From Dehalococcoidia bacterium (GTDB lineage: Bacteria > Chloroflexota > Dehalococcoidia > Dehalococcoidales > W498), in assembly GCA_011170285.1 (NCBI GenBank), contig DUEE01000023.1, positions 7,283 through 71,282 on the forward strand: 64,000 nt of DNA, given 5' to 3'. Numbering within the stretch: the stretch's first letter is position 1; the number at the start of each line of letters is the position of its first letter. Of this stretch, positions 3,752 through 44,330 are shown piece by piece. The position numbers and the translations under genes are program-made. The notes under the pieces were generated by a model, which saw only the letters and a program-made list of their open reading frames with translations, did no database searches and was not told the DNA's origin.

Positions 3752-3802
3752 ATAATAAATAAAAGCCAGCTTTATTCAGTTTAGCTACCTATAAAAGCTG
3801 GC
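3752..3802 (-). terminator. putative intrinsic terminator downstream of the tubulin-like gene
   Basis: 9-bp stem GCCAGCTTT (3765-3773) pairs with AAAGCTGGC (3794-3802). On the minus strand it is followed by TTTTATTTATTATT. It starts 20 nt after the stop at 3823. Confidence 0.5.
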
Positions 3803-3822: not shown

Positions 3823-4995
3823 TTATAGTAGTGAGGGTAAATCCTTTGCCGACTCTTCTACTCCTTCAATTTTGCGCCCGATATCCTCTTCTCTTTCTTT
3901 AATCTCATGAAGAAAGGTGGTCGATTTAATATAGTAATTCCTGACCTTTTCCACTTCACTAAGTTCAGACAAGATTACAGTTATATCCATCAGCCCTTTT
4001 TCCCTGGGGTAATCGCCGTTCCTTATTACAGCCTCCGGAAGCACGTCTTTTAGATAGTTGCCGAGTTCCTTAACCATATCCATATTCATTTCCTTAGCTG
4101 GAGCAGAGAGAAGGTATAATGCTCTATGTGAATCCGCAGGGTTACATCTAAGTGATAGCTCACTTATAGCTTCGTCCATTGCCTGGATTCCCTTGTGGGT
4201 TTCGGTGCTTTTTCCCCTGAAATTACGTCCGCCACAGGGAAATCTAAATAATGGAAGTTGTGATTTACCATAGCCCATTACTGTCCATCCTACCAGGGTC
4301 TGTATTATGTCTCCAGCATCAAGCAACTTTGACCCAATATATTTGCGCTTTTTCTCCTCGCCAGCACAAAGTAGATTGTAGAACGGTTCAACTATTAGGG
4401 CATTGATTTGAGCCAGGTTGTTTCTAAGTGAGAAGTCCTTTCTAACATACCTTTGGTTATCAATAAGAATTACTGCATCAGCCACTGAATTGGCAGATTT
4501 AAGACATGTAGCTGAGTTATAGATGGTTCTTTCTTCTGAAGTCTCTTCATGCTCAAAGGGGAGGATAATAAGATTATATACCGGCTTATCCATATAACGC
4601 TCTTTAATGTATTGCGTCATTATTGGTATTGACCCGGAGCCAGTGCCGCCAGCGGCACCGGCAATTAGTAAGAAGGCATCTGACTCAAAGAAGTGCGGAG
4701 CAGTTCTTATAGCGTCTATAACTTTATCGGCGTCTTCCTTGGCTATTTCGGCACCCAGTTCATTTATCTTACCTACGCCATGACCACCAGTTTTTCGACC
4801 TCCGATGAGAATTCTATGCTGGTAATCAGGTTTTATATGGGATAGCCCACTTAAATCAGCAGCATCTGTGTTTATAGCAAAAGCACCAGTAGTTATCTCA
4901 ATCCTACGCGTGCTGCGCGCCCTTTTATTTAGTCGGGCAAACTCATCGGCAATCCTACTGCCGCATTGTCCAAAACCTATAACAACTAATTTCAT
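3823..4995 (-). CDS. tubulin/FtsZ-superfamily GTPase, CetZ/tubulin-like rather than FtsZ-like
   Basis: 390 aa. T1 loop IGFGQCGSRIADEF and G-box AGAAGGTGSGS are the tubulin/CetZ type (GGTGSG). The canonical FtsZ at 32797 has GGGTGTG instead. Other motifs: GHGVGKINELGAEIAKED, PVYNLIILP, LIDNQ, NGDYP. Confidence 0.8.
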   Translation of the reverse strand: MKLVVIGFGQCGSRIADEFARLNKRARSTRRIEITTGAFAINTDAADLSGLSHIKPDYQHRILIGGRKTGGHGVGKINELGAEIAKEDADKVIDAIRTAPHFFESDAFLLIAGAAGGTGSGSIPIMTQYIKERYMDKPVYNLIILPFEHEETSEERTIYNSATCLKSANSVADAVILIDNQRYVRKDFSLRNNLAQINALIVEPFYNLLCAGEEKKRKYIGSKLLDAGDIIQTLVGWTVMGYGKSQLPLFRFPCGGRNFRGKSTETHKGIQAMDEAISELSLRCNPADSHRALYLLSAPAKEMNMDMVKELGNYLKDVLPEAVIRNGDYPREKGLMDITVILSELSEVEKVRNYYIKSTTFLHEIKEREEDIGRKIEGVEESAKDLPSLL

Positions 4996-5084
4996 TTCTC
5001 ACCCCGATACTAAAATTCTAGCTATTTTAAGCATACCTATATGGTAATGTCAATCCTGATAGCAACAGGAATCCCTATTGCCAG

Positions 5085-10947: not shown

Positions 10948-12261
10948 GTGGCTGAGCTATACCCCTTTCGTGCTGTTCACTATAACCAATCGCTGGTTAA
11001 GGACCTGTCAGCAGTAATCTGTCATCCTTATGACATTATTACCCCACAATTGCAGCAGGAGCTTTATCAGCGAAGCCCGTATAACTTTGTCCGACTGGAG
11101 TATGGTCGGGTATTGCCTCAAGATACAACTATAGACAATAAGGATACTCGTTCGGCAGCTACCCTTGAGCAATGGCTGAAGGAAGGCATCCTTGTGGCTG
11201 ATGAGGTGCCAGCTATCTATCTTCACGACCACTATTTTACTTACCAAGGGAGAGAATATAAACGCCGCGGTATGGTGGTCTGTGTTAGGTTAGAGGAATG
11301 GGATAAGATGGTTATTCGTCCCCATGAGGGCACGCTATCTGAGCCTAAGAGTGACCGACTGAGTCTGCTATGGGCATGCCAAGCCAATACCAGCCCCATT
11401 TTGGCACTGTTTGAAGACCTGGGGCAGCAGGTCTCATCGTTGTTAACCTCATCAGAGCGAGGTGAACCTATGCTCAGTTTAAGTAGTGCCGGTGGAGAAA
11501 GCCATTGTATTTGGGCTATTACTGAGCCTGGAGTTGTTAATCAGATATGTAGTAGGCTGGCCCATCAACCGCTCTACATTGCTGATGGACATCACCGCTA
11601 TGAGAGTGCTCTTATTTACCAGCGTGAGAGGCTTGCATGTTTTTCATCAGAATCAGCCAGTGCGGCATTCAATTTTGTTTTGATGGAGCTGGTAGATTTT
11701 TCCGACCCTGGGCTTATAATTCTACCTCCTCACCGTCTGGTTCGTGGCATCTCCAAATCAACCCTGGATGAGCTGATGGCTAAGTTGAGAGCATTCTTTG
11801 AAATAGAGGCTTTGCCCTTGACTATACCCGATGTTTGGCGGCAAGTTGACGATTTACTGACTGGTGAGACAAATCAGGTTCGGCTAATCCTTTTTGGGCT
11901 GGAAGCAGAGCATCTTTTTGTGCTGAGGCTGCGTGACTTGTTTGCCGCCAGTCAGATGATGCCATACTTTCATTGTGAGCTGTATAAGCAGTTAGGGGTT
12001 AGCATTATTGACCATATCATACTGGAGAAACTACTGGGAGTGGGCAGTGGCAGTGAGGATGCGCTCCTTGGCTATAGCTATGATAAGCAAGATGCGGTAA
12101 ACAAGGTATTAGACCAGGAATACCAGCTAGCCTTTTTATTAAAGCCGATTAAGCCAGAGGTGGTTAAAGCCATAGCCGATGTCGGTGACCGGATGCCCAG
12201 GAAATCAACCTACTTCTATCCCAAACTACCGGCGGGATTGGTTTTCCATCGATTACTGTAA
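10948..12261 (+). CDS. DUF1015 family protein
   Basis: 437 aa with a GTG start. N-terminal PFRAVHYN...VICHPYDIITP and ADGHHRYESA match my recollection of DUF1015. Confidence 0.75.
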   Translation: MAELYPFRAVHYNQSLVKDLSAVICHPYDIITPQLQQELYQRSPYNFVRLEYGRVLPQDTTIDNKDTRSAATLEQWLKEGILVADEVPAIYLHDHYFTYQGREYKRRGMVVCVRLEEWDKMVIRPHEGTLSEPKSDRLSLLWACQANTSPILALFEDLGQQVSSLLTSSERGEPMLSLSSAGGESHCIWAITEPGVVNQICSRLAHQPLYIADGHHRYESALIYQRERLACFSSESASAAFNFVLMELVDFSDPGLIILPPHRLVRGISKSTLDELMAKLRAFFEIEALPLTIPDVWRQVDDLLTGETNQVRLILFGLEAEHLFVLRLRDLFAASQMMPYFHCELYKQLGVSIIDHIILEKLLGVGSGSEDALLGYSYDKQDAVNKVLDQEYQLAFLLKPIKPEVVKAIADVGDRMPRKSTYFYPKLPAGLVFHRLL

Positions 12262-12433
12262 GCACCTTCAAATTGAATTTTGATAACTAAGCGCTATCTT
12301 GATGAGTGATATAGTTGTATTCAGTTCCTCCAGCTATAAGTCAAGAGCTTGAGGATTTAGAGAAAGAACTGGAGAAAACAAAGTGATGCCGAAAGTGCGA
12401 CATAAAATAGACCAAATTGTGAGTTGAAAAATT

Positions 12434-12784
12434 ATGCATCCTCTTGCCAGAAGACATTTTGAGAGAGTATTGAGGGAAGGTAAGCTTTTAGGGATTGATA
12501 AGGGTTGTCAATATCATTATTCTTGCCACGATGGTAATATAGAAGATTGCACTTTCTGCTATTGTCCCTTTTATCCCTGTGGAGATGAATCTACAGGGGG
12601 CAGGTGGATTGAAGGCGGAGTCTGGTCATGCAAAGACTGTAGTTGGATACATCGGACAGAAGTTGCCAGCAAAGTTCTGGAGGAAATGAAACATTCAGGT
12701 ATAAAAAAACCGGAAGATATTGAGAAAAGACATAACCGCCTTAAGGAAATGAGGGAGAGGATTAACACTCTCTATCCATTATGA
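12434..12784 (+). CDS. cysteine-rich small domain protein (zf-like, PF04071-type)
   Basis: 116 aa with the signature CTFCYCPFYPCGDESTGGRW plus CKDC. Confidence 0.6.
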   Translation: MHPLARRHFERVLREGKLLGIDKGCQYHYSCHDGNIEDCTFCYCPFYPCGDESTGGRWIEGGVWSCKDCSWIHRTEVASKVLEEMKHSGIKKPEDIEKRHNRLKEMRERINTLYPL

Positions 12785-12922
12785 AAGTGAATAACATTTT
12801 GGCTAGGATTGAAAAACTGGGAGTAAGGGGATAAAATGCAGTTTTGGGAAGTAAAAGGTGGAGAAGCAAAACTACTTACAGCTTGGGGTCAATAAATTAT
12901 TTAAAGAAAGGTTGGAAGTGCC

Positions 12923-13396
12923 ATGGCAATTTTACCAATTTGTCACTATCCTGATGATTCTGTACTGAGACAAAAAGCCAAGAGAGTATCCAGCATTGAT
13001 AGTTCAATCCAGCGGCTTATTAATGACATGGTGGAGACAATGCAGCAGGCGAATGGGGTAGGCTTGGCTGCTCCTCAAATAGGGGTATCTCTGAGATTGG
13101 CAGTGCTACAGATGCCAGGGGAAGAGCCTATGGCTATCATTAATCCGCAGTTTGTCAAACGCAGTGGGGAGCAGGAGGTAACCGAGGGTTGCTTAAGTAT
13201 TCCCGGTTACTTTGGGCAGATAAAACGCTCAGCTTCGGTCGTGGTTAAGGGGCTGGACAGCGAGGGCAAGGCGATTAGAATTAAAGCTAGCGGACTAATG
13301 GCCGAGGCGTTGGAGCATGAAATTGACCACCTTAATGGCATCTTATATATTGACCATATAGAGAGCCAAGATGAGTTACATGAGGTTGAGGCATAA
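12923..13396 (+). CDS. def: peptide deformylase
   Basis: 157 aa carrying the three Def motifs [16 protein letters not shown] and HEIDHLNG. Confidence 0.95.
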
Positions 13397-13398
13397 TT

Positions 13399-14055
13399 AT
13401 GGGCTCCAACAGGGTAATGAAAACAGTAGTGCAGTGCGATTTTGATGGCACAATCACTCAAGACGACCAGTCCTTCTTATTACTAGATACCTTCGCTAAG
13501 GGTAACTGGAGGCAACTGCTAGCAGAGTATAGGGAAGGCAATATTTCTGTTGGCCACTTCAATACTAAGGCTTTTGCTATGGTTAAAGAAGATAAGCAAA
13601 CCCTGCTTGATTTTATCAAGGACAAAGTTAAAATACGAGCTGGATTCAGTGAATTACTGACCTATTGCCGTAAGAACGGTTTTCAGTTCATTATTGTAAG
13701 TAATGGTTTACATTTCTATATAGACGCAATTTTAAAACACATCGGAGTGAACAATATCAAGGTATTTGCCGCGCAGGCTCATTTTAGTTCCAGAGGTATT
13801 GATGTCAAATATATGGGGCAGGATGGATCCTACTCGGAGAGTGAATTTAAAGAGACATATGTTAGGTCATTTCTGGTAAATAGTTATCGTGTAATATATG
13901 TGGGGAATGGTCTGTCTGACATTTCTCCAGCCAAACAGGCTCATCATATCTTTGCCAGGGATGAGCTACTAGCCTACTGTAAGGAGGCAAGTCTTAATTG
14001 CACGCCCTTTGTTGACCTTAATGATGTAGTTAGAGGTTTGGAACTTTTGGGATGA
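13399..14055 (+). CDS. HAD-IB phosphatase (MtnX-like)
   Basis: 218 aa with HAD motif I VQCDFDGTIT, IVSNG and a late GNGLSD motif. Confidence 0.7.
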   Translation: MGSNRVMKTVVQCDFDGTITQDDQSFLLLDTFAKGNWRQLLAEYREGNISVGHFNTKAFAMVKEDKQTLLDFIKDKVKIRAGFSELLTYCRKNGFQFIIVSNGLHFYIDAILKHIGVNNIKVFAAQAHFSSRGIDVKYMGQDGSYSESEFKETYVRSFLVNSYRVIYVGNGLSDISPAKQAHHIFARDELLAYCKEASLNCTPFVDLNDVVRGLELLG

Positions 14056-14164
14056 GTGTGATGGAGTGGTAAAGGATGATAAATAGAAAAGCGTTGAGGA
14101 GAAAGTATTTGGTGATAATTTTCTCCATAGGTACCAAAAAAAAGAATTAAGAAAGGTTGGCAAA

Positions 14165-14809
14165 ATGAAGATCACCATCGTTTATGACAATGAAGTAAAG
14201 AAGGAGGGATTAAGAGCCGGATGGGGATTCTCGGCTCTTGTCGAGAGAGAAAAATTGCCCACGATTTTATTTGACACTGGTGCCGATAGCCCTACCCTGT
14301 TACACAATATGAAGCAACTAGATATAGATCCCAAGATTATAGACATAATCGTAATATCGCATCTTCACGGAGACCACACTGGAGGGCTGGCTGATATTCT
14401 TAAACAAAATGAAACTGCTGAGCTCTATATTCCCAGCACCTTTAACAGAACGTTTCCAGGGAGAAAGGTAACCTCTGTCGGCAAAGACCCGGTTCAAGTT
14501 TGCCAGGATGCCTTCTCTACTGGTGAGCTTGAAGACATAGAACAGTCTTTGGCGCTCAAAATAGATAAAGGAATATTTGTGCTAGCCGGTTGCTCTCACC
14601 CGGCAATGAGGGGCATATTAGGAGCTGCCTCAAAGTTTGGTAAGCTATATGGCATCGCTGGCGGCTTTCATGGGTTTCATGACTTCAAGGTTTTTGAGGA
14701 CTTATCACTAATTTACCCTTGTCATTGCACCCAATATAAGAAGAAGATAATAGAGTTATTTAAGGGTAAAGCTTTAGAATGTGGAGCTGGATTAATAATT
14801 GAGGTCTAG
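14165..14809 (+). CDS. MBL-fold metallo-hydrolase (COG1237-like)
   Basis: 214 aa with WGFSALVE...LFDTG and the metal motif ISHLHGDHTGG. Confidence 0.75.
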   Translation: MKITIVYDNEVKKEGLRAGWGFSALVEREKLPTILFDTGADSPTLLHNMKQLDIDPKIIDIIVISHLHGDHTGGLADILKQNETAELYIPSTFNRTFPGRKVTSVGKDPVQVCQDAFSTGELEDIEQSLALKIDKGIFVLAGCSHPAMRGILGAASKFGKLYGIAGGFHGFHDFKVFEDLSLIYPCHCTQYKKKIIELFKGKALECGAGLIIEV

Positions 14810-14810
14810 C

Positions 14811-15491
14811 CTATGAACTTCCATAATCTCTTTCACCGAATATCTTGGTGCCTATTCTTACTATATTGGCTCCTTCCTCTATAGCAATTTTATATGAGTT
14901 TGTCATTCCCATTGAAAGATACCTCATCTCCACATTAGGCAGATTGATTTGTTTAATCTTGTCAAATATCATTCTTGTCGCTATAAAATAAGGTCTTGCC
15001 TCCTCCGGGTTTCCAAAACGAGGCCCCATGGTCATAAGTCCCATTAGTTTGATGTTGCTGAGGCCAGAGACTCCCCTTATTAACTGTTCCGCATCTTCTG
15101 GGAATATACCTGATTTTTGTTTTTCCCGACCGCTATTTATTTCAATTAGAATCGGCATTATTTTGCCAATCTGAGTGCATTTCTTATCAATTTCCCTGGC
15201 TATTTCCATAGAATCAACAGTTTCTATCATGTCAAACATTTGCACTATCTTTTTTCTTACATTATGCTTCTGAAGAGTTCCAATGAAATGCCATTTGGCT
15301 CTTTTGCCTACCACTTCATAGGCTCTTCTTGCTTCTTGGACATAATTTTCCCCGATGATTTTTACTCCTGTCTGAACCGCCTCTAGTATCTCCTCAGGAG
15401 TTCTTGTTTTTGCCGCTGCTACCAATGCAACTCCGTCAGGTAATTCAGCCAGTATCCGTTGAATGTTTTGTTTAGTTATTTCTGTCAGCAT
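14811..15491 (-). CDS. yggS: YggS-family pyridoxal-phosphate homeostasis protein
   Basis: 226 aa with LVAAAKTRT, WHFIGTLQ.NK, LSMGMT and IVRIGTKIFG. Confidence 0.9.
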   Translation of the reverse strand: MLTEITKQNIQRILAELPDGVALVAAAKTRTPEEILEAVQTGVKIIGENYVQEARRAYEVVGKRAKWHFIGTLQKHNVRKKIVQMFDMIETVDSMEIAREIDKKCTQIGKIMPILIEINSGREKQKSGIFPEDAEQLIRGVSGLSNIKLMGLMTMGPRFGNPEEARPYFIATRMIFDKIKQINLPNVEMRYLSMGMTNSYKIAIEEGANIVRIGTKIFGERDYGSS

Positions 15492-15577
15492 TTATGTTAA
15501 CTTATTATGGCGATTATGGGCACATCTTTTAACTATAGCCCATTGTAATATCAACCAGCTTCCCTTCAAATAGTGGA

Positions 15578-16354
15578 CTACGGTGTTCTAAGTATAATCC
15601 CAATAGGACAATGGTCAGAACCCGACACCTCAGGCATTATGAATGCCTTTGAAACTGACCCCAATAGATTTTCGGTCACGAAAAAGTAGTCAATTCTCCA
15701 GCCCACATTTCTGTCCCTTGCCCTTGATTTCATATCCCACCAGGTATATTGATTTGGTTCCTTGTTGAAGTGACGGAAGGTATCTATATAGCCATGAGTA
15801 ACAAATTTGTCCATCCAGGCTCTCTCAATGGGCAGAAATCCTGATATATTTTTATTCTCTTTTGGTCTAGCCAGGTCTATTTCCTTATGAGCCGTATTGA
15901 AGTCGCCACAGATGATTAGCTTTTCGCCTTTTTGCCTAAGAGGTTCTACAAAATCCAGGAAAGTGTCATAGAAATCCATCTTGTATTTCAATCGGCTCTC
16001 ACCTTTTTGCCCATTGGGGAAATATACATTAAACAGAATGAATTGAAGATAGTCCGAAATTATAACTCTTCCCTCAATATCCAAATCTTGAACACCAAAA
16101 TCATTCTGAAATCTAAGCGGCTTTTCTCTGGTGAAAGTGGCAACTCCACTATAGCCTTTCCTTTCGGGATAGTTCCAGTGGGCATGATAGCCATATGGTT
16201 CCCGTAAGTCTCGGTCAAGCTGCTCAGGGTGGGCTTTTGTTTCCTGAAGGCATAGGATATCCATGGACTCTCGGTATAGCCATTCTAGTAAGCCATGCCT
16301 CTGTGCGGCTCTAATTCCGTTAACATTCCAGCACAATATCTTCGTTTCTTTCAT
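15578..16354 (-). CDS. xth: exodeoxyribonuclease III
   Basis: 258 aa with ILCWNVNGIRA, DILCLQETK, GDFNTAH and the C-terminal SDHCP. Confidence 0.93.
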   Translation of the reverse strand: MKETKILCWNVNGIRAAQRHGLLEWLYRESMDILCLQETKAHPEQLDRDLREPYGYHAHWNYPERKGYSGVATFTREKPLRFQNDFGVQDLDIEGRVIISDYLQFILFNVYFPNGQKGESRLKYKMDFYDTFLDFVEPLRQKGEKLIICGDFNTAHKEIDLARPKENKNISGFLPIERAWMDKFVTHGYIDTFRHFNKEPNQYTWWDMKSRARDRNVGWRIDYFFVTENLLGSVSKAFIMPEVSGSDHCPIGIILRTP

Positions 16355-16707
16355 GTTGAGTCCTTGCTGACCTGCTTCTCCTATCTCTGGTTGGGGGGAG
16401 GCGGTTTAACCGCCGACCACCTGAACTCCATCCATCTTGGGTAAAAGACGGCGACCGCTTGCCTCCTTGTCTTAAGGTAAATTATAGGCGAAGTTGTAGC
16501 AGATTTCAAAGGCTTGCAGGCTCTACGCCATCCCATAAACAATCTATAAAGTCAACCGAGAAGAAATCTAATCGTGATTCACCTAACAGATAAATAGAGT
16601 GTCTAGCCTTTGTAAAATGACCATCGTTTATTATCAGTCGTATGTACCAATTATAAACGAGTTAACCGAATCTCTCAGGCTCATCTTGTATTGGAAGAGA
16701 ATAGGGG

Positions 16708-16736
16708 TTGACAAATGGCACATATATTACTATAAT
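16708..16736 (+). promoter_or_regulatory. consensus sigma-70 promoter upstream of the XRE gene
   Basis: TTGACA (16708-16713), 17-nt spacer, TATAAT (16731-16736). It sits about 50 nt upstream of the ATG at 16786. Confidence 0.6.
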
Positions 16737-16785
16737 ATATCCAATTGACATTATTGAGGGGCTACTATATTGAGGGGGTACTATT

Positions 16786-17013
16786 ATGATAGTAAAAACG
16801 AAGATTTTTGCATTGTACGATGGGAAATACAAGAACTTATCTGATTTAGCTCAAGCTATGGGAATATCGGTAAGCCAAGTTTACCGCGTGCGAGAAGGCA
16901 AGCGCAATATCAATCAAAAATTCCTCGTCGGGGCAATAAATGCCTTCCCCGGATACAAACTTGATGACCTTTTTTATCTTGCCCCTGAGTTGCCAACTGT
17001 TACTAATAACTAG
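16786..17013 (+). CDS. XRE-family helix-turn-helix protein
   Basis: 75 aa with the HTH LSDLAQAMGISVSQVYRVREGKRNI. A consensus promoter lies upstream. Confidence 0.7.
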   Translation: MIVKTKIFALYDGKYKNLSDLAQAMGISVSQVYRVREGKRNINQKFLVGAINAFPGYKLDDLFYLAPELPTVTNN

Positions 17014-17140
17014 CAGGATTTAACAGATAAGCAAACTGCAAAAGAAAAAATAAAGCAAGCAGCCAGTGTTGACAAGGATTATCTCCGCCATTGAGGAATA
17101 TAACCAGCACTTTGCCGAAATGCAGTAGTGCCATCATAAA

Positions 17141-17449
17141 CTTATCACTGGTACTGGAAAGGCTCACCTCTCAATAGCCCTGAGAATCAAGGCTTGTGCT
17201 CAGAGAAAGAGAGTGCTCTTCACCTCAGCGAGGTGATTACTCGACCAGATGGTTGCTGCCACCGTCTCTCATACTTTTGAGAAGAGAATGATAATCTTAA
17301 CTACCAATAAGCCCTTTTAACCATCGGATAGATATGTTTGGCGATGATGTTATCACCTCAGTTATCCTTAACCCCCCCACTATTACCACATCATACCTTC
17401 TGGTGGTTCTAGCTACCACATCAAGGATAAACTGGAGAGTCAAAAATAG
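17141..17449 (+). pseudogene. degraded IS21-family IstB (ATPase helper) remnant
   Basis: Fragments read in shifting frames with stops: LITGTGKAHLSIALRIKACAQRKRVLFTSAR* (Walker A region), EKRMIILTTNKPF*, DMFGDDVITSVIL and HIIPSGGSSYHIKDKLESQK* (IstB C-terminus). The Walker B region is deleted. Confidence 0.6.
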
Positions 17450-17563
17450 GTGAGGTTGAATAAATGCCTGAAGTGTATTTTTACCCGGGGTGGGTCAATT
17501 TTTAAGCGGTAATCTACAGACCGTAATACACCAGCCTTCTGAATATCAGTTAGGAGGTGCGAG

Positions 17564-19558
17564 ATGAAAAGAGACCAAGATAAGACAAAAGAGCAACTTA
17601 TAAATGAACTGGAGGAAATGCAAAAGCGAGCTGTTCAATTGGAAACACATGAATCAGAGTATAAGCGTTTGATGGAAACACTGGGAGAGAGTGAAGAAAA
17701 ATACAGAGCGCTGGTTGAAGACACTCTCATTGGCATAATGAATGTGGATATCACCGGTAAAATCACCTATGTTAACCAAACTATCCTGCAGGGCACAGGC
17801 TATTCATTAGAGGAGATGATTGACAAGAATGTGTTCAGGCTTGGTCTATTTTCTGGTGAAACCATAAGGGTCTTAAGAAAGCGAATGAAAGAAAGGCTGA
17901 TGGGACAACCGCCCGGACTTCTGGAGATACAATTCAAGCGAAAGGATGGAGAATGGATATGGCTGCACATAAGGGGTAGGGTGCTCTGGAAACACAATAT
18001 ACCTGTCGGCATCCAAATCATCGGAGATGACATCACCGAGCGCAGACAGGCTGAAGAGAAACTGTGGAAAAGTGAGGAGCGTTTCAGGACGATCTACGAA
18101 AATGCGCCGGTGCTGATCGACGCGTTCGATAAGAATGGGCGTTGCGTGCTTTGGAACAAGCAATGCCACGAGATCTTCGGCTGGACTATTGACGAGATCA
18201 ACGCACACGACGATGCGCTGGCGCTGTTCTATCCTAATCCTGCCGTGCGCGAGGAGGTAAAACAGACAGTCACTACCAAGCCGGACGGGCGTTTCAGGGA
18301 ATGGCATCCGGTAACAAAAGCCGGGAAGACGCTCACCACTATGTGGGCGAACTTCCGTCTTCCCGATGGCATGGCGTTCAACCTAGGATATGACATCACC
18401 ATGCGCAAGCAGGCGGAGGAGAAACAAATGAGAACCGAGAAATTAGAATCAATCGGTACCCTTGCCGGTGGTATCGCCCACGATTTTAACAATATTCTAA
18501 CCGGTATTATGGGCAATATTGGTCTAGCTAAGAGATATGTAGAACCAAAAAGCAAGGCCGAGGAAAGGTTGCTGGAAGCAGAGAAGGCATCCTTGCGGGC
18601 AAGAGATTTGACCCAGCAACTGCTGACCTTTGCCAGAGGTGGAGCACCGATTAAGCAAATTGCTTCTATTACAGAATTGTTAGAAGAGTCAGCTACCTTC
18701 GCCCTTAGAGGTTCCAATATCAGGTGCGAGTTTTCCCTAGCGGATAACCTCTGGTCAGTAGAAGTTGATGAAGGACAGATGAACCAGGTCATAACTAACC
18801 TGGTTATCAATGCTGACGAGGCTATGCCTGAAGAGGGAATACTCAACATAGGAGCTAGGAATAGTGTCGTTAAAACAAGCAGTACTTTACCACTGCCTGA
18901 AGGAAACTATGTGGAGATAACCATAGAAGACCACGGGATTGGCATATCAAGAGAACATCTCAGTAAGATATTTGACCCCTATTTCACCACCAAGCAGAAA
19001 GGAAGCGGACTGGGGTTGAGCACTGCTTACTCTATAGTCAAGAACCATGAAGGCTACATCACCGCCAAGTCCAAGCTGGGGGTCGGTACAACCTTCCACA
19101 TCTATCTTCCCGCTTCTGAAAAACCAATCCCAGTAGAGAAGGAAGAAGTAGCCGAAACCGCTGCTGCTGGTAAAGGCAGGATATTGGTTATGGATGATGA
19201 AGAGATTGTCAGAGCACTTCTCCATGATGAGCTGACCGATTTCGGATATGAGGTAGAACTGACTGATTATGGAGCGGAAGCCGTTGAGCGTTACAAAGAA
19301 GCTAAAAAGTCAGAAAAACCTTTTGACGCTGTTATTCTTGACCTAACCGTTCCTGGTGGGATGGGAGGTAAGGAGGTCATTAAGAAGCTGCTCGAAATAG
19401 ACCCCGATGTTAAGGCAATTGTTTCCAGCGGCTACTCCACCGACCCCATAATGTCTGACTTCAGGGAATATGGTTTCAGCGCTGTTGTTGCCAAACCCTA
19501 CACAATGGAACAGTTGGAAAGGACATTGCGTAGCATATTATTGGAGACAGGTGAGTAA
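17564..19558 (+). CDS. hybrid sensor histidine kinase/response regulator with two PAS domains
   Basis: 664 aa. N-terminal coiled coil, two PAS domains, an H-box LAGGIAHDFNN, HATPase motifs (NLVINADEAM, DHGIGI, GSGLGL) and a C-terminal receiver (ILVMDDE...DLTVPGGMGG...KP). Confidence 0.9.
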   Translation: MKRDQDKTKEQLINELEEMQKRAVQLETHESEYKRLMETLGESEEKYRALVEDTLIGIMNVDITGKITYVNQTILQGTGYSLEEMIDKNVFRLGLFSGETIRVLRKRMKERLMGQPPGLLEIQFKRKDGEWIWLHIRGRVLWKHNIPVGIQIIGDDITERRQAEEKLWKSEERFRTIYENAPVLIDAFDKNGRCVLWNKQCHEIFGWTIDEINAHDDALALFYPNPAVREEVKQTVTTKPDGRFREWHPVTKAGKTLTTMWANFRLPDGMAFNLGYDITMRKQAEEKQMRTEKLESIGTLAGGIAHDFNNILTGIMGNIGLAKRYVEPKSKAEERLLEAEKASLRARDLTQQLLTFARGGAPIKQIASITELLEESATFALRGSNIRCEFSLADNLWSVEVDEGQMNQVITNLVINADEAMPEEGILNIGARNSVVKTSSTLPLPEGNYVEITIEDHGIGISREHLSKIFDPYFTTKQKGSGLGLSTAYSIVKNHEGYITAKSKLGVGTTFHIYLPASEKPIPVEKEEVAETAAAGKGRILVMDDEEIVRALLHDELTDFGYEVELTDYGAEAVERYKEAKKSEKPFDAVILDLTVPGGMGGKEVIKKLLEIDPDVKAIVSSGYSTDPIMSDFREYGFSAVVAKPYTMEQLERTLRSILLETGE

Positions 19559-29946: not shown

Positions 29947-30372
29947 ATGTTTTTTGGTGAATTTGAATATAAGATTGATGAAAAGGGGAGAGTGCCTATC
30001 CCCCCCAGGTTCAGAAGAGAATTAAAAGAGGGAGTGATATTAACTCCGGGGATGGAGAACTGTATCTCCGTCTATCCACTATCTGAGTGGAGAAAGTTGG
30101 CGACCGCACTTACCACCGGTTCAGTTACACGCAGTAAGCTGAGGAAGCTAAATCGGGCTATTTTTGCCACTGCCTTTAGTATCAGCATAGATGGGCAGGG
30201 AAGAATAGCTCTGCCGATTTCGCTAAGGCAGTATGCTGAGATTGTAGATGATGTAATTATAGCTGGCGCTAATACTTATCTTGAACTGTGGAATAAAGAG
30301 CAGTGGGAATCAGAAAAGTCTATTAGCCAAGAGCAATCCTGGCAGATTATAGAAAGCTTAGAAAGGCACTAA
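29947..30372 (+). CDS. mraZ: transcriptional regulator MraZ
   Basis: 141 aa with two SpoVT/AbrB-like halves ([13 protein letters not shown] and DGQGRIALP). Confidence 0.93.
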
Positions 30373-31436
30373 TGAATCTAACAATGTTAATCCCCACTCA
30401 TATCCCGGTTCTAGTGAACGAGATACTGGAGGCACTAGCTGTTCAGCCTGGGGGTCGCTATATAGATTGCACCCTCGGTGCTGGCGGGCATGCTGCTGCC
30501 ATTTTAGAGCGCAGTTCTCCCGGTGGGCAACTACTGGGTATTGACGCTGACCCTGAAGCCATAAAAATAGCCAGGGCAAGACTTGAAGCCTATAGTGGTT
30601 CAAGTCTTCTCATTAACGAAAACTTCGCTAATTTACAGACTATCTGCATTAAATATGACTTCTTCCCGGTGCACGGTATCTTGTTAGACCTGGGGCTATC
30701 CTCTCTTCAGCTCAATGGGAGTGGTCGTGGTTTCAGTTTCCAGCACGATGCACCTCTTGACATGCGGTTGAGTCCCAATCAGGAGGTTACTGCCGCCGAT
30801 ATCATTAATACAGTCTCCGAGGCTGAACTAGCTCACCTTATAAGGGAATATGGTGAGGAAGGCCATAGCTGGCAAATAGCTCACCACATTGTTAACCAAC
30901 GCCCTATAAAAACTACCCTTCAACTGGCTCAGACGATAGAGCAAGCTACTGGTGGGAGACGGGGTAGACTCCACCCTGCCACTAAAACTTTTCAGGCACT
31001 AAGAATAGCGGTTAACCATGAACTTGAGCATCTAGAAGCAGCCCTCAAGCAGACAATCGACCTCCTTGGCTTTGAAGGTAGATTGGTGGTCATTAGCTAT
31101 CACTCCCTTGAAGACCGGATAGTGAAACAATTTATGCGACAGGAATCAAGAAATTGTATTTGTCCCCCAGGTACACCAACCTGTGTTTGCCGACATACCG
31201 CCAGTTTAAGATTAATCAATAAGAAGGTTACTAGTCCTTCCCTAACGGAGATTCAACTTAATCCGCGCAGCCGCAGTGCCAAATTGAGAGCGGCTGAGCG
31301 CATTGCTAATCAGGATGAGCTCCATATCACCGTTGAAGAATTGGGGGGTTCTACGGAGATTAAAGACAATGGATGGAGGAGACCAGCTTTACTAAAGAAG
31401 CTCCGAAGGACATTCTTATCCGCTCAGTTTGGATAA
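30372..31436 (+). CDS. rsmH: 16S rRNA (cytosine1402-N4)-methyltransferase
   Basis: 354 aa with [35 protein letters not shown] and [10 protein letters not shown]. About 45 aa of C-terminal extension. Confidence 0.95.
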
Positions 31437-31529
31437 ATCATTGAGACTAAGAAAAAGAGGAGGTTGCGAAAAAAATGTAAAAGGTAAATTCAAAAGGGAG
31501 CATAAACCTAGCTAAAAAGGAGGGAGAAG

Positions 31530-32747
31530 ATGAAAAAGCGAACCACCGTAGCTTCTATTGATGTTGGCACCACGAAGATATGCACCACCATAGCTGATGT
31601 AAGTGATGGAGGTAGCATCCGGATTGTAGGAGTGGGTATTACCCCATCCAGAGGGTTACATAAAGGACTAGTAGTCAACATCAACGATGCCAGAGAGGCA
31701 ATACACCAGTCAGTGAAAAAAGCGGAACAAGCCAGCAACTATAAAATAGAATCTTCCTATATCGGCGTCACTGGGAGACATGTCAGCTCACTCAATAACC
31801 GAGGGGTGGTAGCCATCACTCGCAATGATAGATTGGTACGTCCAGATGACTTAAGGCGAGTACTTCAATCTGCCCAAAACATCAAAGTTCCTAATGACAG
31901 AAAGCTGCTTCATATTATTCCTCGGGGTTATGCTGTTGATGGTCAGGTAGGAGTCAAGAACCCAGTAGGGATGCACGGCTTCCGGCTAGATGTGGAGACG
32001 CACATCATTACTGCAGCAGTAACTTCCGTCCAAAATCTAATAAAGTGTATTCGCAGTATAGGCATAGATATTGATGACCTCGTCCTCGAACCTTTAGCTG
32101 CCAGCGAGTCAGTATTGACTGAAGATGAGAAGCAAATAGGTGTCATACTAGCTGACATCGGCGGTGGTACTACAGATGTCGCTGTCTTCAGAGAGGGAAG
32201 CATTTGGCATACCTCTATTCTCCCTGTAGCTGGTTATCAAATCACCAGAGATATTGCTATTGGTTTGGGGTTACCATTTGATGTAGCTGAGGAGATGAAA
32301 AAACGGTATGGCAGCGTTATGCCAGTTTACGAAAGCAAGGCAGAAACTAGCAACACAATATCAGAAGACGGACACGGTGTCTCCTATCAAGACCTATGCG
32401 ACATCGTCAGGGCTCGGGTTGAGGAAATCGTAAGACTTATATTGCTAGAGCTACCACGCTCTGAATACGAGACATTAGTCCCGGCCGGGCTGGTGCTTAC
32501 TGGCGGCAGCTCTAACCTTTCTGGCATAGAATCCCTGGGACGCGATATACTTCGACTCCCGGTAAGAGTAGGCGTTCCTACCAATATGTATGGTATCACC
32601 GATGCTCTCCGCGATCCTGCATACGCCACAAGCGTTGGGCTCCTACTGTGGGGAGCAAAACATGACAGCGCACAGACCCGGCGACCCCGCGGACTGGGCG
32701 CAGTTTTAAGGCATTTAACTTTTCGAATTAGGAACCTGTTCCGCTAG
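31530..32747 (+). CDS. ftsA: cell division protein FtsA
   Basis: 405 aa with an actin-like fold (IDVGTTKI, DIGGGTTD, LTGGSS) and a C-terminal amphipathic helix. Confidence 0.93.
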   Translation: MKKRTTVASIDVGTTKICTTIADVSDGGSIRIVGVGITPSRGLHKGLVVNINDAREAIHQSVKKAEQASNYKIESSYIGVTGRHVSSLNNRGVVAITRNDRLVRPDDLRRVLQSAQNIKVPNDRKLLHIIPRGYAVDGQVGVKNPVGMHGFRLDVETHIITAAVTSVQNLIKCIRSIGIDIDDLVLEPLAASESVLTEDEKQIGVILADIGGGTTDVAVFREGSIWHTSILPVAGYQITRDIAIGLGLPFDVAEEMKKRYGSVMPVYESKAETSNTISEDGHGVSYQDLCDIVRARVEEIVRLILLELPRSEYETLVPAGLVLTGGSSNLSGIESLGRDILRLPVRVGVPTNMYGITDALRDPAYATSVGLLLWGAKHDSAQTRRPRGLGAVLRHLTFRIRNLFR

Positions 32748-32796
32748 CTGTCCCAGGAAAGAATACTTTTTAAATATAGACAAGAAAGGAGGAGAG

Positions 32797-33927
32797 ATGG
32801 CAAAAACGAGCTTTGTTTCTAACCCAGCCAACATTAAGGTAATCGGTCTAGGTGGTGGTGGCTGCAATGCTGTAACCCGCATGGTCAGGGAGGAGATTCA
32901 AGGTGTAGAGTTCATCGCCGTGAATACCGATGCCCAAGCGCTGGCCATTACCGAAGCCCCAACCCGTATCCAACTTGGAGAGAAGCTTACCAAAGGATTA
33001 GGCGTAGGTGGTGACCATACATTGGGTCAGAAAGCAGCCGAAGAAAGCAGCGACGAGCTTAGGCAAGTCGTCTCTGGGGCTGATATGGTATTTATCACCT
33101 GCGGTATGGGTGGTGGTACTGGCACCGGGGCGGCACCTGTTATTGCTGAAACAGCTAAGCAAAGTGGAGCCCTCACTATTGCCGTAGTTACCAAACCATT
33201 CACCTTTGAAGGTGTCCGCCGCTGTCAAGTATCAGATGAAGGCATTACCCGCCTGTTAGGCAAGATTGATACCCTTATTATTATCCCTAATGACCGCTTG
33301 CTCGACCTCTGTGACCAGAAGACACCGGTGGATAATGCTTTTAAGCTAGCCGACGATGTTCTGCGCCATGGTGTTCAGGCTATCGCTGAAGTTATCACTG
33401 TCCCTGGGATGATTAACCTTGACTTTGCCGATGTAAAGACAGTAATGAAGGATGCTGGTCCGGCTTGGATGTCCATAGGTACCGGCTCGGGTAAAGACCG
33501 GGCGGTAAATGCAGCCAAAGAAGCCTTAGCTAGCCCCCTGCTCGATGTCTCCATAGACGGGTCAAAGGGCGTGTTGTTCAATGTCATCGGTGGTAGCAGT
33601 CTCACCCTGTTTGAAGTTAATGAAGCGGCTGAGGTAATCAAGCAAGCGGTGGACCCTGATGCCAACATCATTTTCGGGGTGGCTCATGACCCTACTATGG
33701 ATAACGAGATAAAGATTACCCTGATTGCCACTGGATTTACTTCCAAGATAGGGATGCCCGGTGCTAACCAAGAAGAGGAGCTTACCCAAATGCTTCAGGG
33801 CTTAAAGAGTGAAGAGGAACTAGATGTTCCCTCTTTCCTGCGCCGCCCATTATTCAGCCATCGGCGCCAAGCAGTACCTCCCAATACCAAACAGGTGAAG
33901 ACACCGTTACGCACTCTGACCCCTTAA
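32797..33927 (+). CDS. ftsZ: cell division protein FtsZ
   Basis: 376 aa with [29 protein letters not shown] and NLDFADV. Confidence 0.97.
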
Positions 33928-39710: not shown

Positions 39711-40499
39711 ATGAAGATTGCTGTCACTGGTAAAGGCGGAGTAGGGAAGACCTTATTAACGGCTCTCCTTGCTAAGGTATTTTCTGAAGCTGGCTATTCT
39801 GTTCTAGCTATAGATGCTGACCCCGATGCCAATCTAGCTGCCACCCTTGGTTTTCCCGACAGTGACAAGATGGTCCCTATATCTGAGATGAGCGCTCTTA
39901 TTGAAGAAAGGACAGGAGCACGCCCGGGTCAAATTGCACCCTACTATAGGCTGAACCCCAAAGTTGATGACTTACCAGAGAAGTATTCTATAATATACGA
40001 TGGAATTCGGTTAATGGCAATGGGGCGAATTAAACGAGGTGGAACTGGTTGTTATTGCCCTGAGGGTGCTTTGCTACAAGCTTTGCTTATCCATTTGCTG
40101 GTAGTAAGGGATGAGGTGGTTATTTTAGATATGGAAGCCGGGATAGAACATTTGGCACGAGGAACAGCAAAGGCGGTAGATAAACTGATTGTAGTAGTGG
40201 AACCAGGCAGACGGAGCATTGAAACAGCCTACAGGATTGATGAACTGGCACAGGATATTGGTCTACTGAATGTCGCCGTGGTAGCCAACAAGGTCAGAAA
40301 CCAATCAGACAGGAAATTCCTGCTTTCTAACCTTCCCGACTTCAAAATTCTTGGCTTTATCCCCTATGACCAAGCAATAGTGGAAGCTGACCTGGCTAAT
40401 CTTCCCTTGCTTGATTCCAGCCAGCAGATTATCAATGAAATAAGAAATATTTATCAGGCTTTGCTATCACCGGCTAAAGTACAAAGCCTGATAAATTAG
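39711..40499 (+). CDS. cooC: CooC/AcsF-type Ni-insertion ATPase (paralogue 1)
   Basis: 262 aa with a deviant Walker A GKGGVGKT, DADPDANL and the metal motif CYCPEG. Confidence 0.88.
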   Translation: MKIAVTGKGGVGKTLLTALLAKVFSEAGYSVLAIDADPDANLAATLGFPDSDKMVPISEMSALIEERTGARPGQIAPYYRLNPKVDDLPEKYSIIYDGIRLMAMGRIKRGGTGCYCPEGALLQALLIHLLVVRDEVVILDMEAGIEHLARGTAKAVDKLIVVVEPGRRSIETAYRIDELAQDIGLLNVAVVANKVRNQSDRKFLLSNLPDFKILGFIPYDQAIVEADLANLPLLDSSQQIINEIRNIYQALLSPAKVQSLIN

Positions 40500-40565: not shown

Positions 40566-42329
40566 GTGGCTTACGATGCAGTAAAAATGAAGGATTGGCA
40601 GATTGCAGAAGCGGCTGAAGTCAACATGCCAACCCCAGACGAGTGGAGGGAGAGACTAAACCTGGAAAAGGATGAGATGATTCCTTTCGGGAAACTATGC
40701 CGGCTTGATTTCACGAAAATCATTGACCGCCTCAAGGACAAGCCGGATGGTAAGTATATTGAGGTAACTGCTATAACCCCGACGCCGCTGGGTGAGGGGA
40801 AAACAACAACGACAATGGGTATTTTGGAAGGCATGGGCAAGCGTGGATTGAATGTAGGCGGCTGTATCCGCCAGCCCTCAGGTGGTCCGACAATGAATAT
40901 CAAGGGAACGGCTGCCGGTGGTGGCAATGCGCTGCTTATTCCCATGACCGAATTCTCTATGGGTCTTACCGGGGACATCAACGACATCATGAATGCCCAT
41001 AATCTAGCCATGGTGGCGCTTACGTCTAGAATGCAGCATGAGCGCAATTACGATGACGAACAACTGGCTAGACTCACCAAGATGCGCCGCCTGGACATCG
41101 ACCCCACTAGGGTGGAGATGGGCTGGATTATGGATTTTTGCGCTCAAAGCCTGCGCAATATCGTCATCGGTCTCGGTGGGCGTATGGATGGCTTCGCCAT
41201 GCAGTCCAAGTTCGGCATCGCCGTCGGTTCTGAGCTTATGGCTATCCTATCCATTGTCAAGGATTTAGCTGACCTGCGGGAAAAACTAGATAATATAACG
41301 GTAGCCTTTGATAAGAAGGGCAATGTCATTACCACTGGTGACCTTGAGGTAGGAGGCGCCATGACCGCCTGGATGCGCAACACAATTAACCCCACCCTGA
41401 TGTCAACAGTGGAGTACCAGCCTTGCATGGTTCATGCCGGACCCTTTGCCAATATTGCTGTAGGGCAGTCATCAATAACAGCCGACCGTGTCGGGCTGAA
41501 GCTGTTTGACTATCATGTTACCGAGAGCGGCTTCGGTGCCGACATCGGCTTTGAGAAATTCTGGAATGTTAAGTGCCGCTATAGTGGGCTCAAGCCGCAT
41601 GTGTCAGTACTTACCACCACCATCCGGGCACTGAAGATGCATGGCGGAGGACCTAAAGTAGTAGCCGGTCTGCCCCTGCCTGACTCTTACGCTAAAGAGG
41701 ACCTGGGACTGCTGGAGAAGGGTATCTCTAACATGATACATCACATCAACATCATCAAGACATCTGGTATCAAACCGGTGGTTTGTATCAACAGCTTTCA
41801 CACCGATACCAAGGATGAAATAGCTATGGTGAGAAAGGCAGCCGAGGCAGCCGGGGCGTTTTGCGCCTTGTCCAGCCACTGGGCTAACGGCGGCGACGGT
41901 GCCCTAGAACTAGCTGATACGGTCAAGGAAGCCTGTAAAGTTGAGAATGAGTTCAATTTCCTTTATCCTGTGGAAATGAAACTACGGGAGCGGGTGGAAA
42001 AGATTGCCAAAGTGGTCTATGGTGCTAATGGTGTATCCTGGACCCCTGATGCCGAAGCCAAGGCCAAGAAACTTGAGTCCGATGCTAAATATGATGATTA
42101 CGCCACCATGATGGTAAAGACTCATCTAAGCCTCACCCACGACCCGGCAGTTAAAGGCGTCCCCAAGGATTGGGCTCTACCCATCCGCGATGTATTGATT
42201 TACTCCGGGGCGAAATTCCTCTGTCCTTGCGCCGGGGCTATCAGCCTGATGCCAGGAACCTCATCTAACCCTGCCTTTAGACGGGTCGATGTTGATGTAA
42301 ACACGGGAAAGGTTACAGGGCTGTTTTAG
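40566..42329 (+). CDS. fhs: formate-tetrahydrofolate ligase
   Basis: 587 aa with a GTG start after AGGAGG. It contains [13 protein letters not shown] and the EFSMGLTGD region. Confidence 0.96.
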
Positions 42330-42343
42330 CGGAGGAAAACTGC

Positions 42344-43093
42344 TTGAGCTTTAATATTGCTGTAGCTGGAAAGGGTGGTACTGGGAAAACATCTGTAGCT
42401 AGTCTCGTCATTCGCTACCTGAAAAAGAATAGCTCGGGACCAATTCTGGCAATTGATGCTGACCCCAATGCCAATCTAGGGGAGAGCCTGGGACTTAGTG
42501 TTAATAAGACGATTGGCTTGATGCTCGATGAATTCCAAAAGGACAAGATAAATATACCTTCTGGAATGACCAAGGAGACTTATCTGCAGTATAAACTAAA
42601 CGAGATTATCGTGGAAGGTAAAGACATTGACCTGATAACGATGGGGAGGGGTGAGGGTCCAGAGTGCTACTGTTACCCTAATCTTATCCTGAGGAAATTC
42701 GCCGATTCCCTGGCTGAAAACTATGCCTATACGGTTATGGACAATGAGGCTGGGATGGAGCATCTGAACCGAAGAACCACTCAGAATATTGACCTGCTTC
42801 TTATAATCTCCGACCATTCAGTGAAGGGGGTACGAACTGTTGCTCGAATAAGAGACCTGGTCGCCGAGCTAAAACTGGTGGTGAAAAAGCAATCGGTGAT
42901 AATCAATTTCGCCCCGACCAATCTGGACCCTCTCGTTGTTGACGCACTAGATAGGCTGGGAATTGAGCCTACAGCTATAATTCCTGAAGACAGGGAGGTA
43001 TATGAGTATGATCTCAAGCTAAAGCCACTGCTTGACCTACCTGATACCTCACAAGCAGTGAAGGTAATTAGTGATTTGATGGCTAATTTGTAA
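42344..43093 (+). CDS. cooC: CooC/AcsF-type Ni-insertion ATPase (paralogue 2)
   Basis: 249 aa with a TTG start, GKGGTGKTS, DADPNANL and CYCYPN. Confidence 0.85.
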   Translation: MSFNIAVAGKGGTGKTSVASLVIRYLKKNSSGPILAIDADPNANLGESLGLSVNKTIGLMLDEFQKDKINIPSGMTKETYLQYKLNEIIVEGKDIDLITMGRGEGPECYCYPNLILRKFADSLAENYAYTVMDNEAGMEHLNRRTTQNIDLLLIISDHSVKGVRTVARIRDLVAELKLVVKKQSVIINFAPTNLDPLVVDALDRLGIEPTAIIPEDREVYEYDLKLKPLLDLPDTSQAVKVISDLMANL

Positions 43094-43136
43094 AGGATTA
43101 GCTTATTGTGTCATAATATTAAAAAAGGAGGCGAAA

Positions 43137-44024: not shown

Positions 44025-44036
44025 GGAGTGAACAAA

Positions 44037-44258: not shown

Positions 44259-44284
44259 ATAAAGAAGTAAAAAATATCGTTTAA

Positions 44285-44322
44285 AATTCCTAGCTTTGCA
44301 GCTAGGAATTGTTGCTTTTGTT
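44285..44322 (+). terminator. intrinsic terminator/attenuator inside the Wood-Ljungdahl cluster
   Basis: Perfect 11-bp stem AATTCCTAGCT / AGCTAGGAATT, loop TTGC, followed by GTTGCTTTTGTT. Confidence 0.6.
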
Positions 44323-44330
44323 ATGTAAAA

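Follow-up and report, generated by a model that had tools for sequence, protein, structure and literature searches.

A CetZ-like tubulin-superfamily GTPase alongside FtsZ and FtsA in a Dehalococcoidales bacterium (Chloroflexota)

Within the tubulin/FtsZ superfamily, CetZ proteins make up the third major branch, and the locus described here raises the question of what a protein of this type is doing in a bacterium that also possesses a canonical FtsZ. The gene is encoded on the minus strand of a 64,000-nucleotide stretch from a Dehalococcoidia bacterium (contig DUEE01000023.1, positions 7,283 to 71,282 of the forward strand; the whole stretch is referred to below as the window). Its product of 390 amino acids starts with MKLVVIGFGQCGSR. 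The analysis shows an intact CetZ-type GTPase that is encoded in addition to FtsZ and FtsA; the host lineage is reported to lack peptidoglycan, and the gene is a vertically inherited resident of a Dehalococcoidales (Chloroflexota) chromosome. A sister lineage of CetZ is thus part of the conserved gene core in a bacterial class that is large and of ecological importance and that includes subsurface Dehalococcoidales, organohalide respirers and the marine SAR202 group.

Family assignment of the CetZ-like protein

The window protein is a CetZ in the broad sense, that is, CetZ together with the CetZ-like proteins. Its C-terminal domain matches the Pfam family CetZ_C (PF21011) at 51.6 bits, above the curated cut-off of 21.6 (E 1e-13), and the same domain is present in all 240 homologues listed. 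No Pfam match to FtsZ_C (PF12327) or Tubulin_C was obtained for the protein, Tubulin_2 (PF13809) stays below threshold with 16.7 bits vs 27, and the FtsZ equivalog model TIGR00065 gives 66 bits, far under its cut-off of 295. When the Protein Data Bank (PDB) was searched with phmmer, the three best matches were the only three solved CetZ structures: CetZ1 of Haloferax volcanii (4B46, 2e-44, over the full length), CetZ2 (4B45, 2e-28) and the CetZ of Methanosaeta (Methanothrix) thermophila (3ZID, 4e-14). FtsZs followed at about 5e-10 at best (roughly 1e-8 to 1e-10) and tubulins at about 1e-6. By BLASTP the protein shares 31.5% identity with CetZ1 and 28% with CetZ2; with the FtsZ of the same window the identity is 31%, in an alignment of just 94 residues.

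The predicted fold gives the same order. An AlphaFold2 (AF2) model built on a 53-sequence alignment (mean predicted local distance difference test score, pLDDT, 72; predicted template modelling score, pTM, 0.79) was compared with known structures by Foldseek, and the top three were again 4B46, 4B45 and 3ZID, with target-normalised TM scores of 0.86, 0.83 and 0.75, the FtsZ structures coming next. A preliminary description of this DNA, made from the letters alone, had read a 390-residue protein with GQCGSR (T1 loop) and GGTGSG and had assigned it to CetZ rather than to FtsZ, TubZ or FtsZl, proposing a structural comparison with CetZ as a check. The open reading frame agrees with that reading and lies on the minus strand, the strand having been left unstated in the description, and domain, sequence and fold comparisons all lead to the same assignment. 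The blocks it had described as colinear with CetZ1 (MKLvvIGFGQ, GHGVGkiNELGAEIAkED, DAFLliaGaaGGTGSG, PVYnLiILP, DN and GDYP) are all found in the phmmer alignment to 4B46. It had been mistaken on one point, the labelling of DN as the T7 region, as D179-N180 belongs to T6/H7 and the T7 loop is L-D226-A-G-D229.

Membership in the broad family does not make the protein a canonical CetZ, from which it is separated by its 31.5% identity to CetZ1 and by the position of its clade outside the supported canonical-CetZ node. The likeness to H. volcanii CetZ1 (HVO_2204) extends to full-length colinearity, fold, the CetZ_C domain, GGTGSG, the acidic T7 residue corresponding to E218, and a long C-terminal helix followed by a short hydrophobic tail (LESLF in CetZ1, DLPSLL here). 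The T1 loop differs, being GQCG as in tubulin and 3ZID where CetZ1 has GQAG. With 3ZID and its Methanosarcinia group the protein thus shares GQCG, as well as GGTGS and a common supergroup in the published tree described below; on the other hand, the identity to 3ZID is about 28% and limited to the N-terminal domain, the C-terminal region being not alignable by sequence. Compared with bacterial FtsZ, it has the superfamily fold, presumably the same chemistry of GTP-dependent polymerisation, and a similar C-terminal peptide, and occurs in the same genome, but it carries GGTGSG instead of GGGTGTG, has no FtsZ_C, lies outside the division cluster and stays far from the equivalog cut-off.

Tubulin-superfamily extras of bacteria are often TubZ-like, and the present gene is monocistronic with promoter-like and terminator-like signals of its own, as might be expected of a TubZ/PhuZ-type tubulin that serves DNA segregation or a mobile element on an integrated plasmid or prophage. 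We consider this origin very improbable. Tubulin_2 falls short of its threshold, none of the 60 best PDB matches listed is a TubZ or PhuZ chain, and in the tree of Santana-Molina et al. (2023; PMC9871819) the TubZ proteins group apart, in a clade of Firmicutes. In addition, the neighbors are core housekeeping genes whose order is conserved across dozens of species, and no tubR-like or mobile-element genes are found nearby.

The GTP-binding site is complete, with loops T1-T6, and the protein looks catalytically competent because the nucleotide-binding loops and both acidic residues of T7 are invariant. In an alignment of 53 sequences spanning 38–94% identity (alignment A3), the invariant positions are G7, G9, Q10, G12, G116-G121, N160, D179, N180, N198, D226 and D229, and in a 228-sequence conservation profile 49% of positions reach a conservation of 90% or more. 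The catalytic T7 residue of CetZ1 is E218 (bioRxiv 10.1101/2024.04.08.588506). These data bear on the idea that the protein is a degenerate paralogue, no longer able to polymerise or to hydrolyse GTP and with a non-cytoskeletal role or none. The M-loop (approximately aa 246-258) is long and poorly conserved across the 228 sequences, and the AF2 model has low-confidence stretches at aa 60-76 and 212-225, which is what such decay could look like. Against this, the nucleotide-contacting loops and the T7 acidic residues do not vary over the whole range of identity, conservation is strong over the full length including the extreme C-terminus, and multiple paralogues are retained. Degeneration therefore appears very improbable as well.

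Residence, distribution and phylogeny

A CetZ-type gene in a bacterial assembly could be archaeal DNA brought in by mis-assembly or mis-binning, or by a very recent private transfer. The closest characterised relatives are indeed archaeal, and the gene has a GC content of 0.425 and a third-position GC content (GC3) of 0.373, which lie 1.3 and 1.7 standard deviations under the means of the window open reading frames (ORFs). Both values are within two standard deviations of the window ORFs and thus give no sign of compositional foreignness, and GC is uniform along the window. The gene is surrounded by dnaX, ybaB, recR, gap, eno, pth and NAD-dependent ligA, plainly bacterial as the preliminary description had stated for most of them, and the other annotated genes across the 64 kb are typically bacterial as well, including dnaE, priA, trmD, def, ribosomal protein L25/TL5, nrdR, plsY and sigma-54. 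An identical protein is found with the same neighbors on nine contigs of independent ENA and JGI assemblies, and a 99% relative on a further contig.

The distribution is equally broad. A word-indexed search returned 7541 cluster representatives at E ≤1e-5, and the best 120 of these are at least 76% identical to the window protein; the named ones are Dehalococcoidia, Dehalococcoidales or Chloroflexi metagenome-assembled genomes (MAGs), and one cluster representative is already annotated as "Tubulin-like protein CetZ". In a scan of one genome per species, at least 558 GTDB species genomes contain a relative. The best 80 (68–84% identity), from which synteny and paralogue counts were taken, are all Dehalococcoidia except for three MAGs with doubtful labels, and the order ligA-pth-SLOG-eno-gap-[CetZ-like]-dnaX-ybaB-recR recurs repeatedly among them. 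Since the nine contigs, the at least 558 genomes, the conserved synteny and the bacterial gene content all point the same way, a chimera, contamination or recent private transfer is excluded, and archaeal DNA in the assembly retains next to no probability. The checks on chimeric assembly and on distribution proposed in the preliminary description thus both favor a resident gene. Of its two suggestions on origin, laterally acquired or ancient, the second agrees with the wide syntenic distribution, and a recent transfer does not.

To place the protein in a phylogeny, 1.84 billion representatives were searched exhaustively with HMMER, which gave 1252 clusters at E ≤1e-3. A neighbor-joining (NJ) tree of 73 full-length representatives, rooted with the window FtsZ as the only outgroup and built without reference tubulin, TubZ or archaeal FtsZ, places the window protein in a clade with bootstrap 91, with CetZ1 and CetZ2 outside. 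All named members of this clade are Dehalococcoidia drawn from Dehalococcoidales and SAR202; this taxonomy covers named members only and leaves out the deep branches P0133, P0139, P0140, P0141 and P0150. The clade includes a deep subclade of 418-residue proteins from SAR202 and marine Chloroflexi, on contigs of up to 4.7 Mb. Among named sequences, the closest outgroups come from archaea (Nitrososphaerales and Bathyarchaeia), and we make no claim on a donor lineage because the backbone bootstraps of the NJ tree are 15 or less.

A published frame is provided by Santana-Molina et al. (2023; PMC9871819), who mentioned CetZ-like proteins of Chloroflexota-Dehalococcoidia in one sentence, as "sparse paraphyletic groups". 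Their published maximum-likelihood (ML) tree file (Fig. 4-5) was parsed for the position of the clade. It contains a clade with an ultrafast bootstrap (UFBoot) of 100 that comprises GIF9 MAGs and Dehalococcoidales, the latter including Dehalococcoides mccartyi (WP_041331079.1, WP_010936748.1, WP_011309486.1), three paralogues of a single Dehalogenimonas genome (AKG53714, AKG53596, AKG53580) and D. formicexedens (WP_083635354.1); two Patescibacteria sequences also fall in it. The clade proteins were matched by the CetZ C-terminal hidden Markov model of that study at about 1e-14 to 1e-21, and strains 195 and CBDB1 of D. mccartyi are on the hit list. For the published Dehalogenimonas AKG53714.1, the window protein is the best match (54% over the trimmed alignment), with shared blocks and DIP tail, and it is therefore a member of the UFBoot 100 clade, another orthologue of the same family in the same host class. 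A node with UFBoot 90 holds this Dehalococcoidia clade, the Methanosarcinia/Methanothrix group of 3ZID and all canonical CetZs, and the NJ tree is compatible with it; the phylogeny thus bears out the placement among CetZ and CetZ-like proteins. Within it, the Dehalococcoidia clade is separate from the canonical-CetZ node, which unites the CetZs of Hydrothermarchaeota, Syntrophoarchaeia, Archaeoglobi, Methanomicrobia and Halobacteria, with intervening supports of 14-35 (UFBoot 14-16 for its placement).

The family probably either came from archaea into an ancestor shared by the peptidoglycan-less Dehalococcoidia or represents an old lineage sister to archaeal CetZ, and either direction is conceivable. 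Two further cases stand apart from the window clade. The marine Dehalococcoidia lineage UBA3495 has a canonical-like CetZ (MAX59202.1) closest to P0217/P0246, with 32% identity to CetZ1, and P0191, labelled "Chloroflexota bacterium", is sister to P0209 from Bathyarchaeia with bootstrap 82 in the NJ tree. These UBA3495-type and P0191/P0209 cases show that archaea and Chloroflexota have exchanged CetZ-type genes on more than one occasion, and a repeated exchange of cytoskeletal genes between the two is thereby documented.

The family is already known and not of a new kind: it is present in the genomes of cultured Dehalococcoides, in Pfam as CetZ_C and in the tree of 2023. What is added to PMC9871819 is the breadth of distribution, the synteny, the paralogy, the conserved tail and the coincidence with wall loss. 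The premise of the preliminary description that CetZ is an archaeal protein is out of date in view of that tree and of the pipelines that annotate CetZ here. It is still in circulation, as CetZ is called archaea-specific in PMC9856176 and PMC11621097, and a literature search for studies of any bacterial CetZ-like member found no such paper. We regard the family as under-appreciated, and its interest lies in the combination of wall loss, an archaeal-type cytoskeleton and the hypothesis of an FtsZ-like tail.

Envelope, C-terminal tail and possible cellular role

The division cluster of the window consists of mraZ, rsmH, ftsA and ftsZ; nrdR comes immediately after it, and mur, ftsW, ftsI and ftsQ genes are absent. 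The preliminary description had reported both this want of wall-synthesis genes and the canonical FtsZ with GGGTGTG, and each is seen here. Among the approximately 50 annotated ORFs of the window, no SepF or other obvious partner is found. The same arrangement is known in D. mccartyi, Dehalococcoidales and the SAR202 cluster, and loss of the division and cell wall (dcw) and peptidoglycan genes has been inferred in their common ancestor, the basal Tepidiformales and UBA6077 having kept the genes (PMC10608941). In PMC11994032, SAR202 is portrayed as having an S-layer and no peptidoglycan, with archaellum genes in some of its lineages, and taken together the two papers report S-layers and peptidoglycan loss for Dehalococcoidales and SAR202. 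The named members of the CetZ-like clade come from the same two groups that are reported as peptidoglycan-less, and this coincidence is suggestive of a link between the clade and peptidoglycan loss. A requirement for extra tubulin-like machinery upon loss of a rigid wall has a precedent in Archaea, since archaeal FtsZ2 is tied to S-layer-only envelopes and absent in pseudomurein-walled lineages (bioRxiv 10.1101/2020.06.04.133736). FtsZ2 is a functional parallel only; it is a true FtsZ paralogue and by sequence a different family. CetZ1 offers another likeness, as the cells of both hosts have an S-layer as their boundary and no wall of the murein type (for the window host by lineage reports). 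The window also contains an Asp/Glu-racemase-family gene (59106-59807) and a YggS-like (Ala_racemase_N) gene (14811-15491), in spite of the reported lack of peptidoglycan in the lineage; these genes are presumably unrelated to wall synthesis.

FtsA is bound by the C-terminal peptide of FtsZ, and a similar peptide closes the CetZ-like protein. The motif [DEN]-[ILV]-P-[ST]-x-x is found in the last residues of 228 of the 229 unique Dehalococcoidales-type sequences compared, exactly C-terminal in 217 and otherwise within two residues of the end, with the consensus K-D-I-P-S-L-L. In the AF2 model of the window protein, a long C-terminal helix (aa 349-383) is followed by a disordered tail. The C-terminal peptide of the window FtsZ holds D-V-P-S-F-L, close to the D-L-P-S-L-L of the CetZ-like protein, and among 50 window proteins these two C-termini are the only places with the pattern D[ILV]P[ST][LF]L. 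The window FtsA has an amphipathic membrane-targeting segment at its own C-terminal end. We infer that the CetZ-like tail may bind FtsA as the FtsZ peptide does. In H. volcanii, CetZ1 ends with LESLF, and mutation of this tail abolishes rod formation (bioRxiv 10.1101/2024.04.08.588506); the tail of the window protein resembles it and could likewise be needed for function. Two differences from CetZ1 are relevant here: the window tail has a Pro where bacterial FtsZ peptides have Pro, and the window protein coexists with FtsA, which archaea do not have.

It is probable, in our estimation, that this vertically inherited gene has a functional CetZ-like product that polymerises, is docked through its tail and acts in cell shape and/or constriction. 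The protein would form head-to-tail, GTP-dependent protofilaments like CetZ1 and FtsZ, in which the T7 loop of each subunit would enter the nucleotide pocket of its neighbor and so trigger GTP hydrolysis. From the long C-terminal helix, the tail K-D-[IL]-P-S-L-L would reach a membrane-located partner. The most likely partner would be FtsA, which is the leading candidate because the tail mimics the FtsZ peptide D-V-P-S-F-L. Filaments beneath the S-layer envelope would then set cell shape and/or aid constriction in place of murein-wall mechanics. The shape or membrane-remodelling role suggested in the preliminary description is likewise a putative one. The replacement of the wall by an S-layer in Dehalococcoidia offers a natural test of whether tubulin-like filaments can take over shape or constriction, and the role is directly testable because cultured hosts exist (Dehalococcoides mccartyi and Dehalogenimonas).

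A related possibility is that the protein chiefly serves division, as an FtsZ2-like second partner of FtsZ that provides or organises the force of constriction in cells dividing with no septal wall ingrowth, and is not a determinant of shape. This overlaps with the explanation just given and differs in the cellular role alone. A second superfamily member in peptidoglycan-less Dehalococcoidia would parallel archaeal FtsZ2 and its S-layer-only envelopes (bioRxiv 10.1101/2020.06.04.133736), and the FtsZ-peptide-like tail would bring the protein to the same FtsA anchor. One genome even carries a copy inside the division cluster: in locus L034 (isolate ARS1330, NZBQ01000018.1, 5811-11986, Dehalococcoidales) the order is mraZ-rsmH-ftsA-ftsZ-CetZ-like-nrdR, so that the paralogue sits between ftsZ and nrdR, and the usual gap/dnaX-linked copy of the same MAG is found on another contig (L047). 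On the other side, the protein is CetZ-like by sequence and fold, with FtsZs scoring orders of magnitude behind CetZ1, nearly all genomes carry the gene between gap and dnaX away from the division cluster, and the CetZs of H. volcanii are individually dispensable for division. A chiefly divisional role is therefore possible, though we rather doubt it.

Several points weigh against a tail-docked polymer acting in shape or constriction. The confidence of the AF2 model is moderate. The hallmark of the CetZ1 M-loop, a hydrophobic or amphipathic tip (LLSRL in H. volcanii; bioRxiv 10.1101/2024.04.08.588506), is not conserved in the 228 sequences. For the whole family, polymerisation, localisation and phenotype are deduced by homology, and CetZ1 function may not be transferable to the window protein, since the identity is only 31.5% and the clade does not belong to the canonical CetZ node. 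The idea of FtsA docking comes from a six-residue resemblance that was defined after the fact, and the tail may simply be ancestral because archaeal CetZ tails are related to it, many archaeal representatives having the C-terminal end D-[IL]-x-x-L-[LF]. The correlation with peptidoglycan loss is coarse, as the published dataset holds zero Tepidiformales or UBA6077 sequences, and two Patescibacteria sequences are placed inside the published Dehalococcoidia clade.

CetZ-like genes are often found in more than one copy. In about 35 of the 80 best loci, a second copy with 62–72% identity lies 3–4 kb upstream, and in 26 loci the two copies flank a 744-residue Ala/Glu/Lys-rich repeat protein and a 173-residue coiled-coil protein encoded on the opposite strand. 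The intervening genes are seen for example in L004 (6925-9740, minus strand) and also in L007, L011, L012, L014 and L017, the 744-residue protein being a weak Phasin_2 match. The two CetZ-like copies and the coiled-coil proteins may constitute a conserved cytoskeletal module. In the window, neither the 744-residue repeat gene nor the 173-residue coiled-coil gene is found, and tblastn detects no second CetZ-like copy within the 64 kb, so the gene is single-copy there. Three loci have a divergent tandem copy (approximately 45% identity) just upstream, namely L036 (8764-9939), L046 (8764-9933) and L059 (3076-4245); these copies have the tail E-L-P-T-L-D, the T1 loop GQCGCN and CetZ_C at 72 bits. 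The MAG labels of the three loci (Deltaproteobacteria or Dehalococcoidales) look unreliable. A more elaborate scenario, that the ancestor of Dehalococcoidales and SAR202 acquired or kept a CetZ-type cytoskeleton during conversion to an archaeon-like S-layer envelope, and that this cytoskeleton was then joined to the bacterial divisome by docking to FtsA and works in many species as a module of two paralogues with coiled-coil proteins, is at present speculative and in our judgment unlikely as a whole.

Gene signals and other features of the window

The coordinates of the features are collected in the table below. The plus-strand reading of 3823-4995 was ruled out, as it is interrupted by many stop codons. 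Upstream of the gene, a sigma-70-type promoter-like site and a purine-rich Shine-Dalgarno-like sequence were located, and downstream a hairpin with a U-run folds at -17.2 kcal/mol (z = -2.0 vs shuffles), in agreement with the separate terminator claimed in the preliminary description. A simple terminator scan overlooked this hairpin because its loop is long.

Table. Coordinates of the CetZ-like gene, its signals and protein regions, and the division genes in the window
Feature	Position	Strand	Details
CetZ-like tubulin-superfamily GTPase gene	3823..4995	minus	unbroken ATG-to-stop ORF, 390 aa + stop codon
Sigma-70-type promoter-like site TTGACA-18-TAAAAT	5024..5053	minus	11/12 in consensus scan; consensus match only
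Shine-Dalgarno-like purine-rich GGGGTGAG	4998-5005	minus	read from sequence upstream of the CetZ-like gene
Terminator-like hairpin, 9-bp stem GCCAGCUUU/AAAGCUGGC, then U-run UUUUAUUUAU	3755..3802	minus	RNA fold
N-terminal GTP-binding domain, aa 3-182	4450..4989	minus	Pfam PF00091, 115 bits vs cut-off 33, E 5e-33
T1 loop GQCGSR, aa 9-14	4954-4971	minus	motif read in translation
T4 signature GGTGSG, aa 116-121	4633-4650	minus	motif read in translation
T7 (synergy) loop D226-A-G-D229	4309..4320	minus	aligned with CetZ1 D-S-S-E and FtsZ D-F-A-D
CetZ-type C-terminal domain, aa 189-353	3937..4431	minus	Pfam PF21011 CetZ_C; GDYP block inside
Conserved C-terminal tail K-D-L-P-S-L-L, aa 384-390	3826..3846	minus	after helix 349-383; 229-sequence comparison
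Division cluster mraZ-rsmH-ftsA-ftsZ	29947..33927	plus	then nrdR directly (to 34667)
FtsA	31530-32747	plus	division-cluster member
Canonical FtsZ	32797-33927	plus	GGGTGTG; TIGR00065 417 bits, cut-off 295

An Rfam scan of the window detected no structured RNAs near the CetZ-like gene, and its sole match was a tRNA gene at 60447-60528 (minus strand). The region 12001-18000, which covers def, HAD, MBL, YggS and exonuclease III genes, has a GC content of 0.40-0.42 vs approximately 0.46, and about 1.2 kb of it (16354-17564) is without an ORF of at least 150 aa, just before a PAS hybrid histidine kinase gene (17564-19558). A complete-looking Wood-Ljungdahl cluster for carbon monoxide dehydrogenase/acetyl-CoA synthase (CODH-ACS) extends over 40566-52490. 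It comprises genes for formate-tetrahydrofolate ligase, a CooC-like ATPase, FolD, AcsD/CdhD, CODH, ACS, AcsC, a pterin-binding methyltransferase and a DUF3786 protein, and a further ParA/MinD/CooC-like ATPase is encoded at 39711-40499.

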